A DNA stretch of 64,000 nt from a virus (lineage: Duplodnaviria > Caudoviricetes). The translations under genes and the position numbers were made by a program. The stretch's first letter is position 1. Each line of letters starts with the position of its first letter. A model generated the notes under the pieces. It had not been told where the DNA came from. It saw only the letters and a program-made list of their open reading frames with translations, and did no database searches. Where the stretch lies: IMG/VR virus record IMGVR_UViG_3300035208_008180; one strand, written 5' to 3'. This document shows positions 57,902-64,000 of this stretch, in pieces.

Positions 57902-58693
57902 TCAATAATTCATCCAAAGATTTTCAGTTACTACTGTTTTTTTACGAGTAGCAGCACCCTTTAGTTCCGCACCCCTGCCAATTGACAATTTTTTGTAGCC
58001 TTTTAGCTCTTTGGCATAAAGGTCCGTTTCATAACCACTAAGAGCCCATCTGAAAGACACACTCTTTAACATCAATAATAACACAGAATGATCGATTTGT
58101 CCATAATACTCATCCGATGTTTCGTGATAGGGCGGATCAAGATAAACAAAATCTTTGGGACCATAGGTAGTCCAGGGAAGATTTTGCCAATGAAGAGAGG
58201 TAATTTTCACGCCCTGAGCAGACAGCAATTCCTTTGCCATTGCAGCACGGGGAATATATTTGTCTCTAGTAAAAGGTGGATGTGACCCCATTTTGCCTTC
58301 TGGAGCTTCATACCCCAAATTAGCACCAGCCGACCAACCTTTTCCACCCCATGTAATTTCAGGCTCCAAAACAACACCAAGAGGGTTTTCTTTCTCTGCT
58401 TGTTTTTGCCAATGCTGAAAACTTTTTTTAGACGTAATAGATTTAGGGAGTTTTTCCAAGTCAGCGGCTAAAAGAGAGTTGAAAAAGTTTCCCCGCAAGT
58501 CATTGATATGCCATTCTTGGAAATCTAATTCCTGCTTGGCTTTGAAAAACACATTACCCCGCCCAGCAAAAGGCTCTACATAAATTCTTCCTTCTTTAGG
58601 GAAATGGGCAAGCAACCAATTGCGTAATCGACTTTTGCCCCCTACTGTGCGAAATGACGGTGTTTTCATTCCCATCCATTGTTTAAAATCCAT
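57902..58693 (-). CDS. dam: DNA adenine methylase with FxxW tag
   Basis: MDFKQWMG then VGGKSRL, YVEPFAGRG, YLDPPY, WALSGY, ENLWMNY; CTATATAAAAT upstream. Confidence 0.9.
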   Translation of the reverse strand: MDFKQWMGMKTPSFRTVGGKSRLRNWLLAHFPKEGRIYVEPFAGRGNVFFKAKQELDFQEWHINDLRGNFFNSLLAADLEKLPKSITSKKSFQHWQKQAEKENPLGVVLEPEITWGGKGWSAGANLGYEAPEGKMGSHPPFTRDKYIPRAAMAKELLSAQGVKITSLHWQNLPWTTYGPKDFVYLDPPYHETSDEYYGQIDHSVLLLMLKSVSFRWALSGYETDLYAKELKGYKKLSIGRGAELKGAATRKKTVVTENLWMNY

Positions 58694-58708: not shown

Positions 58709-59692
58709 TTATCGCAATTTACTGGATCGGAAACTCTCCTTTGCTATATCATGGTTATAGATTATTGTTATTTGGGGGTTTTGTGGCGTATATCGGGAAT
58801 GATACTGACACCAAGCCCCATGATAGGCATTGGGAATAAACCCCCACCCAGAGGATGATGAGTAAATAGCAATTGGATGTGTGAATACTACCTGATAACC
58901 GCCACCATTACGAGTGTATACTTTTTCATTTGGAAACATTTCGTGAACGGCAGCATAACAATATGACCAGAACTCATTGTGAGATTGGCAGCAATATACT
59001 GTGCAATCACAAGAATGAGATCGATGTTTCTGAACGTAGTTTTTCCACCACTCTGCCCAAACGTCTCTTTGCTGAACCACCGCCTTTATAGGCTTTGGCT
59101 TGATAGGCTGAAGTTTTGGCAACTCCACACGGGGAGTTTCCTTGGCTCGCTGTTTTATTTCGCCATCAATTTTTTTGTGCCATTTTTCAATATCCTTGAC
59201 AGCAATCTCGGCAGCCTCTTGCTGGCTCAACGATCTGGCAATGCCTTCTTCGGGCAAAGTAGGTGCGTCGATAAACTTCTTTACCTCATCCTCTCTCGCC
59301 TTGCGATGTGCTTCAAAAACATCTTGATTTACCACATGTCGCAAATATTCTGCCTCTTTCTTGGCCTTCTTAATACAAACATCTACTTGATGTAACTCGC
59401 TGGCCAAGTATCTGGCTACTTCGTCTTTGCCAAGGTCTTCAATGGATTTAAAACCTTTGGCTTCAAAAGTACGTATGAGTGTTTCTCGATCAATTTCCAA
59501 TTTTTTAATCAATTGGACCACATCCTCCAACTTTTGATTGGAAGATTTTTCCACCGGAGCAACACATTTGGTTGCAGGGGGCGGATCATGCGTCGTCTGC
59601 ATTTTCTGGCAAGGAAGTCTCCAATCCTGGTCGCAACCCACCGCAAATACACAAAGCACAATCAAGCAAAAACGTTTCATGGTTTTCTCCAA
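58709..59692 (-). CDS. putative lipoprotein
   Basis: MKRFCLIVLCVFAVGC lipobox. Confidence 0.6.
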   Translation of the reverse strand: MEKTMKRFCLIVLCVFAVGCDQDWRLPCQKMQTTHDPPPATKCVAPVEKSSNQKLEDVVQLIKKLEIDRETLIRTFEAKGFKSIEDLGKDEVARYLASELHQVDVCIKKAKKEAEYLRHVVNQDVFEAHRKAREDEVKKFIDAPTLPEEGIARSLSQQEAAEIAVKDIEKWHKKIDGEIKQRAKETPRVELPKLQPIKPKPIKAVVQQRDVWAEWWKNYVQKHRSHSCDCTVYCCQSHNEFWSYCYAAVHEMFPNEKVYTRNGGGYQVVFTHPIAIYSSSSGWGFIPNAYHGAWCQYHSRYTPQNPQITIIYNHDIAKESFRSSKLR

Positions 59693-59819: not shown

Positions 59820-60344
59820 TTACTTCCAAACCCCCCTGTGGTTTTTCTGAGCTTCTTTTTGAGCAGCGGCAAAATCTTTTCGATTTACCGTGGTTTTTGC
59901 CAATCCTGCTCGCAATTGTTCTATGCAGCAATTGTTACCGTTTTCAGCATAGACAATACCAGCATACCTTCCCCAGCTTTCAAGGACTTCGACTCGCACA
60001 TCATCATTGGGAGAAACAATTTTAGAAAGATTTTCTTGAGCCTGTTTGCCAACTGTAGGAGGTATTTCGAGACCATAGAGATACAAATCACTTTCTCTAC
60101 GGCCAAACAATCCAGCCCTCACAGTTAGATGATTGCCTCCCTCTACACTCACAACTGCTTCTGTGCCAATAAGTGTTTCTTCTTTGTGTCTGCTAAAAAT
60201 GCGATTAGAACAAGCGGCCCACCCCAAGATGAAGCAGAAAATGTATGGAAAGGATTTTCTGGCATAAGGATAAACGAATTTTACAAATGACCAGCACCAG
60301 CCAGCGATTGTAAGAACTAGATTGACAATAGATACCCAACCCAT
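59820..60344 (-). CDS. Membrane-anchored thermonuclease (SNase)-like protein
   Basis: LYGLEIP, WGRYAGIV, EQLRAGLA, AQKEAQKNHRGVW. Confidence 0.75.
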   Translation of the reverse strand: MGWVSIVNLVLTIAGWCWSFVKFVYPYARKSFPYIFCFILGWAACSNRIFSRHKEETLIGTEAVVSVEGGNHLTVRAGLFGRRESDLYLYGLEIPPTVGKQAQENLSKIVSPNDDVRVEVLESWGRYAGIVYAENGNNCCIEQLRAGLAKTTVNRKDFAAAQKEAQKNHRGVWK

Positions 60345-60537
60345 AATTCACCTCATAAAAAAAAAGCCATCCCAAGGAATGGCTTTGTATTTTCAAAAAA
60401 TAAGGGCCAGTGTTTAATTCCCTTGTTCGACACAGTGCTTTTCCCTCCTGGCCCTTGCCCATTGCTAAATAGCAAATCTGGGCTCTTTATTAGTTCGGGA
60501 TTGCATACCATGTCAGGTTATACACTATATATGCGGC

Positions 60538-60756
60538 TCAGCCCCCTTTCGCTTGCCAATAAAAAGCAATCAGCGTACAAACACCAGTTGCAACAGCTAT
60601 AACAGGCAACAGAAGGACAGCACAACCCGATAATACTGTTAGGGTTACAATAAAATCCTTGTCCTGCTTTTGTTTTTGTTTAAAATACCACCAAAGATAG
60701 GTAGTAACCAAACAAATAACCAATGATACGATTCCTACGCCTTGGAGCATCGTCAT
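60538..60756 (-). CDS. small membrane protein
   Basis: Two hydrophobic segments. Confidence 0.55.
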   Translation of the reverse strand: MTMLQGVGIVSLVICLVTTYLWWYFKQKQKQDKDFIVTLTVLSGCAVLLLPVIAVATGVCTLIAFYWQAKGG

Positions 60757-61388
60757 TTAGCACCCCCTTCTTCTGTTTCCTTAGTTTTCTTTTTTGCCCA
60801 AATACCTCTGTGTGCTTTTTGGGCTTCTTTTTGGGCTGCTAAGAGTGCGTTATTATCTTTCTCCACAGAGACTTTGGCCAATCCAGCTTTCAATTGTTCC
60901 AAACAACAATTCTCGCCACTCTTAGAATATGGCAATCCTGAAATATCTCCAAATTTATCCTCTACCCACCCTTCAGCACCTTCTTTAATTTCCACACGAA
61001 TTTCATCATCAGCAGAAATTAATTGTTCCAAATTAACTTTTGCTTCTTTTTCCACCTCTGCCGGTATGGATATTCCCCAAAGCGTACAATTTTTGGTTCG
61101 CCGTGAACGATCACGTATTCCAGCTTTTAACTTGATAACATTACCACTATCTACAGTGACAACAACCTCAGTTTTTGTCACTGTTTTTCCAAAAAACTTA
61201 TCAATAGTGTTCCTGATTTTATGGCAACCCCACATCCCAAAAAGCAAACTGGCCAGGGAGATTAGAATTGGTGCCAACACCAACAGGGATATAAATTGTT
61301 TTTGAGCCCTTCTTCGCTTATAATCCCAAACTGCCCAACCAACTAGAAAGGCAATAAACAAAAGAACTAAAACGTCATAAATACTCAT
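60753..61388 (-). CDS. Membrane-anchored SNase-like protein (paralog)
   Basis: LWGISIP, DKFG, NCCLEQLKAGLA, AQKEAQKAHRGIW. Confidence 0.75.
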   Translation of the reverse strand: MSIYDVLVLLFIAFLVGWAVWDYKRRRAQKQFISLLVLAPILISLASLLFGMWGCHKIRNTIDKFFGKTVTKTEVVVTVDSGNVIKLKAGIRDRSRRTKNCTLWGISIPAEVEKEAKVNLEQLISADDEIRVEIKEGAEGWVEDKFGDISGLPYSKSGENCCLEQLKAGLAKVSVEKDNNALLAAQKEAQKAHRGIWAKKKTKETEEGGAK

Positions 61389-61735
61389 TACCAGCCTCCT
61401 TCCGACCTTATTTGTGATTTCAAAATCACTGTTTCTGGGCTACAGCGATCTGTTAAATTTCGACCATACAAACTGAACAACAAAGCGGCGGCGTCTTCGC
61501 CAAAATCACGAAAATCATTGAACATAATGGTGTAAAATTCAGTTTCAAAAGTGTTTTTAGCATCCAATAACTTGGTGTTCTTTTGAATTTCTTTCACCAT
61601 TTCGTCTCTGCCATCCCACTCAAACAGCGATTTTACAGCCTCATCTGGCAGATATTCCTTATCGGATAATATCTGCCAGATGATCGTAAAACTTGCTGAG
61701 CTTGAATTAGACACAAAGCCTGTTCTAATTTTCAT
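61388..61735 (-). CDS. GFVSNSS-family protein 4
   Basis: MKIRTGFVSNSSSASF. Confidence 0.85.
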   Translation of the reverse strand: MKIRTGFVSNSSSASFTIIWQILSDKEYLPDEAVKSLFEWDGRDEMVKEIQKNTKLLDAKNTFETEFYTIMFNDFRDFGEDAAALLFSLYGRNLTDRCSPETVILKSQIRSEGGW

Positions 61736-62109
61736 TAATAATCTTCTTCCTGATAGTATGTATCCTTTTGTTTGCGAACTTTACTGATATACTCCCCGAT
61801 TAGCTCGCCAGCAAAATATGTGATATCTTCAGCGAATTCAAGCTTTTCAGATGCATCAAATGCTGCCTGTAAAGCTTTTGCTTTAAACATATCAGCTATC
61901 CACTCATCGCCACCCTCGCCAGAAATGTAATTGAGTACAATGGCATCTTGTCCCAATACTTTTCTTTTTTTCAAGCCACTATAGCCTGACATTGCCTTGG
62001 CTTTTAATTCGCCAAGTTTTTCAAGTGCCGCTGCGTGGCTAGTTGGGGTAGTAATAACCAAAAAACTTGTCGTACTGCTGTTGGACACAAATCCTGTTCT
62101 AAATTTCAT
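61735..62109 (-). CDS. GFVSNSS-family protein 3
   Basis: MKFRTGFVSNSSTTSF. Confidence 0.85.
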   Translation of the reverse strand: MKFRTGFVSNSSTTSFLVITTPTSHAAALEKLGELKAKAMSGYSGLKKRKVLGQDAIVLNYISGEGGDEWIADMFKAKALQAAFDASEKLEFAEDITYFAGELIGEYISKVRKQKDTYYQEEDY

Positions 62110-62118
62110 GATATTCTC

Positions 62119-62478
62119 CTAATCGTGATAGGCTTCTTGATGAGTTTCACATTCAACTTTCTTGCCGCACATTTTTTCCACAAGGGCTTCTACACGATCT
62201 TTGAATTGTCTACCTGTTTCATTATCGTCCACGTCGCTCCAAGACTTTCCAATATAACAAGGCCAGTCACTATCAGGATGGTGATATTCTAGTCCTAATT
62301 CTTGAGTTTTCTTTTCCAAAATTTCATAAAGCTCATCACCATAATCATCTTCGTCGTAATTTTCTTCCTGATCCTTGTTCAGAAACATAGCCTCCAAAAC
62401 ATCGCAATCTATGGCTGCACCATAAATACAAAAACTGCTGGTTGAACTGTTAGACACAAATCCCATTCGTAATTTCAT
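62119..62478 (-). CDS. GFVSNSS-family protein 2
   Basis: MKLRMGFVSNSSTSSFCIYG. Confidence 0.85.
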   Translation of the reverse strand: MKLRMGFVSNSSTSSFCIYGAAIDCDVLEAMFLNKDQEENYDEDDYGDELYEILEKKTQELGLEYHHPDSDWPCYIGKSWSDVDDNETGRQFKDRVEALVEKMCGKKVECETHQEAYHD

Positions 62479-62493
62479 TTTAATTATCCTTGT

Positions 62494-62790
62494 TTAACCA
62501 TTATACCAAGCGTCTATATGAGTTGCACATGCAACTTTTTTACCGCATAAGTTTTCTATAAGGGCTTCGACACGGGCTTTAAATTGATTTCCTGTTTCAT
62601 CGCCACCAATATCTGCCCAACATAATCCGACATAATAATTATCATATGGTCGATAACATTCAAGCCCAGCTTCTTCCGCTGCTGCGTAGACATCATCATC
62701 CTCGGGCAAATCTTTTTTGTCTACCCTGGCACCATAAATGCAAAAACTGCTCGTAGAGCTATTGGATACAAACCCCATTCGTAATTTCAT
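62494..62790 (-). CDS. GFVSNSS-family protein 1
   Basis: MKLRMGFVSNSSTSSFCIYG. Confidence 0.85.
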   Translation of the reverse strand: MKLRMGFVSNSSTSSFCIYGARVDKKDLPEDDDVYAAAEEAGLECYRPYDNYYVGLCWADIGGDETGNQFKARVEALIENLCGKKVACATHIDAWYNG

Positions 62791-63110
62791 TTTTGTTTCT
62801 CCACTTTCATTTTTGTTTCCACCCCATCTCCTATCGAAGTATGGGTGATGGTTAAATATTTTGGATGATAGTAAATTTTGTTTACAACCCCTAATTTTAA
62901 ATTAATGGGAATATTGTAATAACAACGTAGTTTGGTAATGCGGCCATCATCAAAATAAAAAAACACTGCTGTGACTGAGTTATCCTCAGGCACACACTGT
63001 ATTTTTTCTAATTTGCCTTCGCACATCGAGTCTTCGGTTATTGATGGCGAAACGCTACCCGATTTGCAACCAACTAATAGCACAAGAGCCAAAAGACTAA
63101 ATCTCCACAT
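62787..63110 (-). CDS. putative lipoprotein
   Basis: MWRFSLLALVLLVGC lipobox. Confidence 0.7.
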   Translation of the reverse strand: MWRFSLLALVLLVGCKSGSVSPSITEDSMCEGKLEKIQCVPEDNSVTAVFFYFDDGRITKLRCYYNIPINLKLGVVNKIYYHPKYLTITHTSIGDGVETKMKVEKQK

Positions 63111-64000
63111 TTTGACTATCCTTACATGCTGTTACATTAAATACCGGACATGATCTGCATTGTTTAACAAATTTACAATTACAACCACAAGAGGATGTTG
63201 TAATTGTTGCTCGCCATTGAATGGCCTTTTTGGCAAACCACACATCTTTGAGAAAGTCTTGACAATTTAATACATCAAGACCTTCTTCCCATCCTTTTTC
63301 GCCTTCGCAGAAAGAGCAAGCAAAATATTTCCCTTCACAATTGATATATGAGGAAAAGAGCCCCGATTCACACGGCTCAGCCAGGATAAGCATTTGTTCT
63401 TCATCAGCTTGTCCTTCTACAGTTTTGAAAAACAAAGGGGCGGAACAGGAATCGAACCCCGCACCAACACCCTTGTCTTTGGAGTAAGCAATTAACTTTT
63501 TGTATTTTTTGACTGTTGAAATAGGATGAAATGCGTCAGTATTATGACCCTTGGGCTTATATTGCAGATAAACTATGGCATTGACTTTTTTAAGCCGAGG
63601 ATCAGAAGCAACATCATCAATAATATTAAATGCTTTTTCCCATGTTTCTTCTGACAACATGAAGTGAATGTTTACTGCATTAAGTGTGTTTCCAGGTTTG
63701 CCAATTTCATCAGTGAATAATTTTATAGCATCATAGCTTTTTTCTTTATTCACAATGCTAACAGCTAAGGCTCCACAAAGTCTACCGGCAAGCTCAGCAA
63801 CCACAGGCGTTACATCTTGTCCTGATGTGGTAAAATTGGGAATTATTCCTTTGCTTCTAGCATACATTGCCATTTTAAAGAAGTCAGGATTGCTATGCAT
63901 ATCGCATAACCCAAAAGCAATTTGCGTGAGGACTTTCGGCATTTTGTCCAAAATAATTTTGAACTGCTCGAAAGTCATATTGACTTCTTCTTCATTGGGG
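63097..64000 (-). CDS. Radical SAM protein with C-terminal SPASM-like domain (5' end outside window)
   Basis: Frame stays open to the window edge (PNEEEVNMTFEQF); QIAFG..SNPD, PNFT, GFDSC, CESGLFSSYIN..G...ACSFC, CRSCP; CxxxCxxC expected upstream, not visible. Confidence 0.75.
   Translation of the reverse strand, partial: PNEEEVNMTFEQFKIILDKMPKVLTQIAFGLCDMHSNPDFFKMAMYARSKGIIPNFTTSGQDVTPVVAELAGRLCGALAVSIVNKEKSYDAIKLFTDEIGKPGNTLNAVNIHFMLSEETWEKAFNIIDDVASDPRLKKVNAIVYLQYKPKGHNTDAFHPISTVKKYKKLIAYSKDKGVGAGFDSCSAPLFFKTVEGQADEEQMLILAEPCESGLFSSYINCEGKYFACSFCEGEKGWEEGLDVLNCQDFLKDVWFAKKAIQWRATITTSSCGCNCKFVKQCRSCPVFNVTACKDSQNVEI

Follow-up and report, generated by a model that had tools for sequence, protein, structure and literature searches.

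A radical SAM enzyme linked to a portable 16-residue N-terminal tag: a putative two-part protein-modification system in large phages and bacteria

We analysed a stretch of 64,000 nucleotides, hereafter the window (G000:C200:160001-224000), of the virus record IMGVR_UViG_3300035208_008180 from IMG/VR (Duplodnaviria; Caudoviricetes). At its end lies a gene for a radical S-adenosylmethionine (SAM) enzyme, followed by a lipoprotein gene and four genes whose products begin with the same 16 residues, which we call the tag. These genes probably represent a two-part protein-modification system, made of a dedicated SPASM/twitch-type radical SAM enzyme and a portable N-terminal tag as its putative substrate. 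The features of the locus are the following (lengths in amino acids, aa):

63097-64000, going beyond the window end, minus strand: radical SAM/SPASM-like enzyme, C-terminal 300 of 371 aa inside the window, with a CX3CX2C motif (PHROG 7293)
G000:C200:223097-224212 (= L001:1598-2713), minus strand: full gene of the same enzyme, 371 aa, ending at window-equivalent position 64212
62787-63110, minus strand: lipoprotein of 107 aa with the lipobox LVGC, MWRFSLLALVLLVGC, between the enzyme and the tag array and overlapping both neighbours
62494-62790, minus strand: tagged protein 1, 98 aa, MKLRMGFVSNSSTSSF, body cluster 1, with an 'ETGxQFK' motif and the C-terminus WYNG
62119-62478, minus strand: tagged protein 2, 119 aa, MKLRMGFVSNSSTSSF, paralogue of tagged protein 1
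61735-62109, minus strand: tagged protein 3, 124 aa, MKFRTGFVSNSSTTSF, body unrelated to the other three
61388-61735, minus strand: tagged protein 4, 115 aa, MKIRTGFVSNSSSASF, body unrelated to the other three
60753-61388, minus strand: membrane-anchored staphylococcal-nuclease homologue, 211 aa (Pfam SNase, 28.2 bits against a cut-off of 21)
60363-60386, minus strand: terminator-like hairpin of 10 pairs with a T run

The order of transcription is radical SAM gene, lipoprotein gene, the four tagged genes and the staphylococcal-nuclease homologue. Start and stop codons of neighbouring genes overlap or are separated by 9-15 nt, and the genes from the radical SAM enzyme to the tag array therefore form a single operon. 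The start of the nuclease gene overlaps the stop of tagged protein 4, so that it is co-transcribed, and the hairpin is the likely end of the operon. A first-pass annotation made from the window alone had described four adjacent, co-oriented genes with a common N-terminus of 16 residues downstream of a radical SAM enzyme and a lipoprotein. The four genes are as it described them, and both upstream genes are present, with the correction that, of the enzyme, just the C-terminal 300 aa fall inside the window. The lipoprotein had no match in Pfam or PHROG; it is not kept at other loci and is absent from the recurrent clusters of neighbouring genes.

The tag reads MK[LFI]R[MT]GFVSNSS[ST][STA]SF in the four proteins of the window and M-K-[IV]-R-x-G-F-V-[ST]-N-S-S-[ST]-x-S-[FY] as a wider consensus. 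A fuzzy search of 2.2 Mb of phage and bacterial DNA, allowing 5 substitutions over 15 positions with none fixed, recovered 492 tags. Asn10 and Ser11 were found in all 492, Ser12 in 491, Arg4 in 490, Phe7 in 489, Ser15 in 484, and Lys2 and Gly6 in 483 each, with Gly6 swapped for Ser, Cys, Asn or Thr in the other nine. Any residue is accepted at position 5, and position 14 is loosely kept; position 9 takes Ser, Thr or Ala (seldom Gly) and position 16 takes Phe or Tyr. Serine codons differ from one tag copy to another, which argues for selection at the protein level, and the recurrence of the same tag 492 times with differing serine codons implies that the identity of these 16 N-terminal residues is not due to chance. 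The tag core begins exactly at residue 1 in 538 of 543 cases (start codon five codons ahead of Gly6), and this fixed spacing indicates that the tag is a free N-terminus. At one locus (L227:11082-12627, Logan ERR6290778), four tandem tagged genes beside the enzyme have a tag that differs, MKIRTSFVGNSSSSSF, in which positions 6 and 9 are Ser and Gly; the glycine at position 9 in these four tags makes side-chain chemistry at that position disfavoured. Thr9 was seen only beside a divergent clade of the enzyme (19 of 27 loci vs 0 of 66), a co-variation between sequences that fits direct contact between tag and enzyme.

The four tagged proteins of the window are acidic (isoelectric point, pI, 4.4-5.5). 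Tagged proteins 1 and 2 are paralogous (48% identity, E 1e-20), and tagged proteins 3 and 4 have no similarity to the others past residue 18, in agreement with the acidic and divergent bodies, two of them paralogous, of the first-pass annotation. The variable domains that it expected behind a common tag were found on a much wider scale, as 269 distinct tagged proteins (60-305 aa, median pI 4.7) fell into ~90 BLAST clusters past residue 18, with 62 singletons. Their bodies measure 45-290 residues, some as short as 45-65, and the clusters include zinc-ribbon proteins, short helical proteins, the 'ETGxQFK' group of the window and the group of RB16p111. Searches with single tagged proteins were nearly empty: tblastn against phages gave no match, and tagged protein 3 retrieved only itself and an 88% identical copy from a large protein database. 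This is explained by bodies that diverge too fast and by masking of the serine run as low complexity, and a degenerate DNA pattern for the tag was used in place of such searches. Among the tagged proteins scanned, Pfam, NCBIfam and PADLOC gave no significant match, and PHROG only a weak N-terminal match to phrog_7397. The RB16p111-type bodies (cluster 3, e.g., L010:12977-13510) have a C-terminal His (S-x-H) in every case and the motifs SDNDG and LEHGxIF in common; judging from these residues, they look enzyme-like. Many cluster-1 bodies, including those of the window at 62119-62478 and 62494-62790, end in W-x-[DN]-G and some in W-H-D, and a C-terminal [DN]-G is also seen in several unrelated body clusters.

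An AlphaFold2 (AF2) model of the 119-aa tagged protein (62119-62478), built with 26 homologues, has an overall predicted local distance difference test (pLDDT) score of 84 and a ferredoxin-like beta-alpha-beta-beta-alpha-beta body, with residues 13-23 as beta-strand 1. Residues 1-12 are unstructured in this model (pLDDT ~50, and <50 at residues 9-11). The modelled disorder of the most conserved residues suits a linear motif read by a partner better than a buried strand. The first-pass annotation had named a buried structural strand as one outcome that would speak against its proposal; the model argues against such a strand for residues 1-12, and residues 13-18 do enter beta-strand 1. This strand is the starting point of a different reading, namely that the tagged proteins are a single diverged family of enzymes or binding proteins in which the tag provides strand 1 and a Ser-rich ligand loop, as in palm-type cyclases, and which would join the radical SAM enzyme in a pathway of small molecules or nucleotides. 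Several body clusters share polar C-terminal motifs (W-x-[DN]-G, S-x-H), and the fold weakly resembles the palm domains of class III cyclase and mCpol (template modelling score ~0.5 in the ESM Atlas; Foldseek E 0.06-0.3). We consider a common fold of this kind highly unlikely, since nothing in the Foldseek search with the tagged-protein model was significant (a generic ferredoxin-like likeness to cyclase, mCpol and IS200, E 0.06-0.5), the invariant residues 1-12 lie outside the modelled fold, the bodies differ widely in size and include zinc ribbons and short helical proteins, and the Pfam, NCBIfam and PADLOC scans of tagged proteins were empty.

The linkage between tag and enzyme was already evident within the assembly that contains the window. 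A six-frame motif scan of all 252 contigs found tagged genes on C200 and C137 only: nine on C200, the contig of the window (the four described above, a tandem pair near 6.5-7.3 kb and singles at 16, 230 and 240 kb), and six in tandem on C137. A PHROG 7293 search of the whole assembly detected exactly two enzymes, one on each of these contigs. The tag array is directly upstream of the enzyme on C137 and downstream of it on C200, so that the order differs and the pairing is kept. Both contigs (C200, 340 kb and 40% guanine-cytosine, GC; C137, 145 kb and 38.5% GC) were placed in a genome bin of 70% GC, and at least these two are large-phage contigs mis-binned with a bacterium; C226, C242, C44 and C140 also fall in the 38-43% GC range within this assembly.

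The same association was found in public data. The degenerate DNA tag pattern detected at least 119 stretches in IMG/VR, and 36 of 49 such records also encoded the PHROG 7293 enzyme. All nine tag-bearing records that were at least 90% complete had it, the 13 records without it were all at most 42% complete, and its base rate was 172 in 50,697 phage records. Retrieval from IMG/VR by enzyme homology gave nine loci, five environmental and four T4-like. At each of the five environmental phage loci, 2-13 tagged genes directly adjoined the enzyme, and in a complete phage of 461 kb 13 of them stood in a row beside it. The four T4-like records had no tagged gene within 10 kb of the enzyme. In RB16, no tagged gene was found within 5 kb of the enzyme; this phage and KP27, both cultured and T4-like, have two tagged genes ~20 kb away from it, in RB16 the genes RB16p106 and RB16p111, which both begin MKIRSGFVSNSSSSSFI. 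At the level of whole records, tags accompanied the enzyme at nine of the nine retrieved loci. The enzyme, p106 and p111 occurred in 172, 174 and 175 records, respectively, with the same genus distribution. In the reverse test, enzyme homologues on long metagenome contigs were picked without view of their neighbours, and on all six contigs with retrievable DNA, 2-8 tagged genes shared the strand of the enzyme at a distance of no more than 10 kb. Over all loci with both partners, enzyme and tag were on the same strand in 92 of 93, mostly no more than ~500 bp apart, and the pairing persisted while enzyme identity dropped to 26% and gene order changed. A single-protein scan of viral contigs with the enzyme gave nothing, and an alignment-based scan was needed. 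The co-occurrence of tagged proteins and enzyme family, which the first-pass annotation had proposed to check, is thus strongly positive in both directions.

When neighbouring open reading frames (ORFs) were clustered, only the enzyme recurred, and no other family was present in more than 12 of the ~120 viral loci. The lipoprotein, the NAD-salvage/macro-domain genes and a second radical SAM gene of C137 were considered as members of the system and rejected, each falling under this limit. NAD-salvage or ADP-ribose genes lie near the tag arrays in ~10 viral loci (e.g., L094, L102, L120, L025) and look NadE-, nicotinamidase-, NAMPT- and macro-domain-type, judged by eye from their N-terminal sequence. 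The second radical SAM/SPASM gene of C137 (L005:6831-7898, G000:C137:30831-31898, minus strand), ~1 kb from the tag-linked enzyme, is unrelated to it; its best NCBIfam match is TIGR04133 (54 bits), with PqqE and viperin-type models, and it does not recur at other loci. In RB16 (L016:2111-6501 = 66610-71000) and KP27 (L136, 65509-69879), a gene for a protein of ~738 aa, whose N-terminus is a von Willebrand factor A (vWA) domain, lies between the two tagged genes. Downstream of the tag array in the window we noted a second membrane-anchored staphylococcal-nuclease homologue (59820-60344, minus strand; Pfam SNase, 27.5 bits), a large ORF (58709-59692) that starts with a lipoprotein-like signal and, a few genes downstream of the operon, a Dam-type DNA methyltransferase with a DPPY motif (57902-58693, minus strand).

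The tag is not restricted to phages. In GTDB genome assemblies its pattern was found in 89 stretches, 49 of them with the enzyme within 8 kb. At 14-16 of these loci, which come from at least five phyla (Acetatifactor muris, Lachnobacterium bovis and Veillonella parvula are represented by isolates), a fixed operon contains a single tagged protein together with a divergent enzyme:

L138:1061-7997: bacterial operon of Acetatifactor muris
L187:28-5206: bacterial operon of Lachnobacterium bovis
L144, L151, L153, L160, L162, L164, L170, L176, L177, L186, L194, L195, L222 and L225: further bacterial operon loci

The gene order is (often) a metallo-beta-lactamase (MBL)-fold protein, a fusion of a trypsin-like protease with a STAND NTPase (800-984 aa), a ~140-aa protein, the tagged protein (~137 aa, starting MKIRxGFVTNSSSTSF), the divergent radical SAM/SPASM enzyme and a ~320-aa protein with an M1E1E6-like C-terminus. 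PADLOC matched the MBL protein as Avs1a/LmuA-like and the protease-STAND fusion as Avs2/Avs1b-like. It gave only generic pVip-type radical SAM matches (51 bits) for a bacterial sister enzyme, and no match for the tagged protein of L138 or for the enzyme of the window. Going by these sequence matches, the bacterial operon with its tag-enzyme module is a candidate defence system, and the module looks like one common to phages and an apparent bacterial immune system.

The breadth of this distribution bears on the idea that the tag is an N-terminal address, for capsid packaging, export or degradation, read by other machinery, and that the radical SAM gene is a syntenic passenger. T4 internal proteins carry an N-terminal capsid-targeting sequence that the prohead recognises and that its protease cleaves off after a Glu. 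In their loci, a conserved tag of ~10-19 residues precedes hypervariable small proteins in plastic tandem arrays, much as here, and the strict N-terminal placement of our tag, the lipoprotein and the membrane-anchored nucleases in the window operon would be in keeping with such an address. Nevertheless, synteny alone cannot account for a linkage kept across T4-like coliphages, huge phages and bacterial chromosomes with enzyme identity down to 26%, and it leaves the two-way tests (9/9 and 6/6) unexplained. Unlike the T4 proteins, the system includes a radical SAM enzyme and its tag lacks the T4-type Glu cleavage site. A predicted middle promoter precedes the tagged genes of KP27, which belong to an early/middle cluster and not to the late virion genes, those of RB16 are likewise early/middle, and the bacterial operons are not phages at all. 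A targeting signal is, therefore, decidedly unlikely. An acidic, fast-diversifying family expanded in large phages is a typical profile of host take-over or counter-defence.

The enzyme of the window belongs to PHROG 7293 (E 8e-72), and more than 1,000 homologues were found. Its SAM-cluster motif is C59-KSG-C63-KF-C66 (CX3CX2C). All 51 homologues keep C63 and C66, and 49 of them keep C59; in some relatives the first spacing is longer (CX8CX2C). C146, C256, C281, C299 and C355 are invariant across the family. The SPASM motif consists of CX9-15GX4C followed by CX2CX5CX3C and a final Cys. Its first half is present and invariant as C281-X12-G294-X4-C299; the second half, C342-x-C344-x-C346-X5-C352-X2-C355-X7-C363, has a non-canonical spacing in which only C355 is invariant, the remaining C-terminal cysteines occurring in only about half of the family. 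In homologues from C137, L010 and bacteria, the Pfam SPASM model scored above the threshold (23.5-34.1 vs 21.5 bits), and the bacterial sister enzymes also exceeded the Radical_SAM cut-off (55.6 and 57.3 bits). No curated NCBIfam family was reached by the window enzyme (best TIGR04317, 32 bits vs a cut-off of 380), and no anaerobic sulfatase-maturating enzyme (anSME) or FxsB model was among its NCBIfam matches at E up to 0.1.

The AF2 model of the enzyme (pLDDT 93.8; predicted template modelling score 0.91) is a partial triosephosphate isomerase-type (TIM) barrel, preceded by four beta-strands without helices in residues 1-50, which carry the family signature YNYxF...TGxFxRWG. Compared by VIA-align with more than 40 solved radical SAM enzymes, it gave Z scores of 13-25, the top matches being SuiB (24.6 over 320 residues), SkfB (22.5) and anSMEcpe (20.3 over 287 residues), followed by CteB (20.2), ChlB (19.8) and TigE (19.4) and, lower, by viperin (18.8), MoaA (16.9) and the activase of pyruvate formate-lyase (PFL; 13.4). 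The SuiB and SkfB alignments start at model residues 5-8. The modelled structure would place the enzyme as a separate, undescribed family within the SPASM/twitch maturase class. The match to PFL activase raises the question of whether the enzyme could install a glycyl radical on Gly6 of R-x-G-F-V, by analogy with the glycyl-radical motif R-V-x-G-[YF]; the Arg is invariant and the Gly is followed by an aromatic residue. This is extremely improbable: the Arg-Gly spacing is one residue shorter than in that motif, Gly6 is replaceable (9 of 492 tags and all four L227 tags), a radical on an exposed flexible tail would be unstable, and the enzyme is much nearer to the SPASM maturases than to the PFL activase.

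Taken together, the obligate pairing, the flexible terminal tail, the invariant Asn-Ser-Ser and the maturase-type enzyme lead us to infer an enzyme-substrate pair, and it is from them that we propose that the tag is the substrate, and which residue may be modified, by what chemistry and to what biological end. The tail would thread end-first into the barrel, where Lys2, Arg4 and Phe7 would grip it, and the 5'-deoxyadenosyl radical would take a hydrogen from a residue in Asn10-Ser11-Ser12. Our first choice for the product would be a carbon-carbon (cyclophane-type) cross-link from Asn or Ser to Phe7 or Phe16, ranked first because invariant aromatics (Phe7 and Phe16, with Tyr tolerated) flank the polar core and because SuiB and ChlB are among the top structural matches. 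Within motifs three to five residues long, radical SAM cyclophane synthases cross-link a side chain with an aromatic ring (PMC11499958). As a second choice, a serine may be oxidised to a formylglycine-type carbonyl, as in anSME, and as a third, a residue may be epimerised, as in EpeE, with the invariant Cys146 as a possible hydrogen donor. The same modification on all tagged proteins would arm or stabilise a fast-diversifying early/middle set, probably acting in host take-over or counter-defence. The first-pass annotation had regarded the Ser-rich motif as a modification site or leader. The linkage, the flexible tail and the nearest structures, which are of peptide- or protein-modifying enzymes including anSME, favour this part of its proposal; an anSME-type site, (C/S)xPxR, is absent.

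Much of the same evidence could be accommodated by a tag that stays unmodified and plugs into the enzyme as a docking handle, the bodies serving as swappable target-recognition modules in the manner of F-box proteins for the SCF ligase. Such a handle draws on the same linkage data and explains both a flexible, strictly terminal tail and the service of one enzyme to up to 13 very different bodies. We find it unlikely, since the radical SAM active site lies within the barrel, where a docked tag would block a second substrate, and since the nearest structural relatives all modify the peptide that they bind. Moreover, some bodies have just 45-65 residues, small for a recognition module, and Asn-Ser-Ser, being absolutely invariant, looks more like a reaction site than a docking strand.

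Several observations weigh against a modification system of enzyme and tag. The Pfam Radical_SAM score of the window enzyme is below the cut-off (PF04055, 22.3 vs 29.5 bits), Pfam SPASM did not match this enzyme, and a Pfam scan of the whole enzyme detected no PqqD-like recognition domain. Adjacency is not required, as five of the nine tagged genes of C200 are far from the enzyme and three T4-like records checked, RB16- and KP15-type among them, have their two tagged genes ~20 kb from it. The co-occurrence counts include related phages and are, therefore, not phylogenetically independent, and the co-variation of Thr9 with the enzyme clade could alternatively just mark a lineage. The three proposed products (cross-link, formylglycine, epimer) are drawn by analogy, from motif logic and structural neighbours, and may be read accordingly as candidate chemistries.

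A modification system of this kind shares features with several known ones. The maturases of peptides that are made by ribosomes and modified after translation (RiPPs) of the SPASM/twitch type (SuiB/StrB-streptide, PDB 5V1T; SkfB; CteB; the cyclophane synthase ChlB, PDB 9GMC) are the best structural matches. As in these systems, the enzyme gene adjoins genes with a common short recognition or reaction motif, one enzyme may serve several precursors, and putative auxiliary-cluster cysteines are present. However, RiPP precursors are short, cleaved and exported, whereas the putative substrates here are folded proteins of 60-300 aa with dozens of unrelated bodies and a motif at the extreme N-terminus that would be both leader and core. 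In addition, Pfam detected no PqqD-like RiPP recognition element in the enzyme, the loci have no protease or exporter, the hosts of the system are mostly lytic large phages and the phage enzyme matches no curated family. anSMEcpe and AtsB, SPASM radical SAM enzymes that modify whole proteins at a Ser or Cys of a short motif close to the N-terminus, offer a second parallel, and some sources label relatives of the phage enzyme 'AslB'. Unlike anSME substrates, the tag lacks (C/S)-x-(P/A)-x-R, with no Pro/Ala and Arg after the Ser, and no sulfatase domain was found in the tagged-protein bodies scanned; unlike anSME, the phage enzyme has the extra four-strand N-terminal domain (residues 1-50), and half of its family is without the second C-terminal cysteine set.

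The FxsB and FxSxx-COOH families, reportedly defined by Haft, provide a third parallel, in which a variable protein with a short terminal F-x-S-x-x (F7-V8-S9-N10-S11 in the tag) accompanies a radical SAM enzyme in conflict loci. The vWA-domain gene flanked by tagged genes in RB16 and KP27 adds to this likeness. Conflict systems of the vWA-MoxR (VMAP) type include FxsB radical SAM/SPASM enzymes and FxSxx-COOH peptides (Kaur et al. 2020, PMC7159879). The FxSxx-COOH motif occupies the last five residues, whereas the tag is N-terminal in 538 of 543 cases with the protein following it, and the enzyme family differs; the resemblance of F-x-S-x-x to FxsA peptides may be coincidental. Membership in anSME, FxsB/FxSxx-COOH, glycyl-radical pairs and the curated radical SAM families tested was rejected in each case. 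The first-pass annotation knew of no characterised function for the pairing, and we found no description of it in the literature searched (on the tag motif, phage radical SAM/SPASM enzymes, RB16/KP15/KP27 and jumbo phages).

The known radical SAM maturases have as substrates either short peptides or a single dedicated family of proteins, the sulfatases for example. What appears to be new here is a probable radical SAM maturase whose putative substrate signal is a portable N-terminal protein tag, a single enzyme appearing to serve 16 residues attached to ~90 or more unrelated bodies. The system is widespread and includes tractable cultured phages, namely the E. coli phage RB16 and the Klebsiella phages KP15 and KP27. 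If the link between enzyme and tag is true, it would bring with it a post-translational modification that is new and a short tag, encodable in a gene, by which proteins could be modified enzymatically. It would also offer a way into the function of hundreds of early phage proteins now called "hypothetical", and it would connect directly to Avs-like bacterial immunity. We tentatively extend this to a possible, if doubtful, universal handle, by which one enzyme would modify interchangeable effectors (or adaptors would steer the enzyme), used by phages against immunity and by bacteria as a single-member version in Avs-like NOD-like receptor (NLR) operons. If this extension were true, the tag and its enzyme would represent a shared, previously unseen post-translational layer in the arms race between phages and bacteria.

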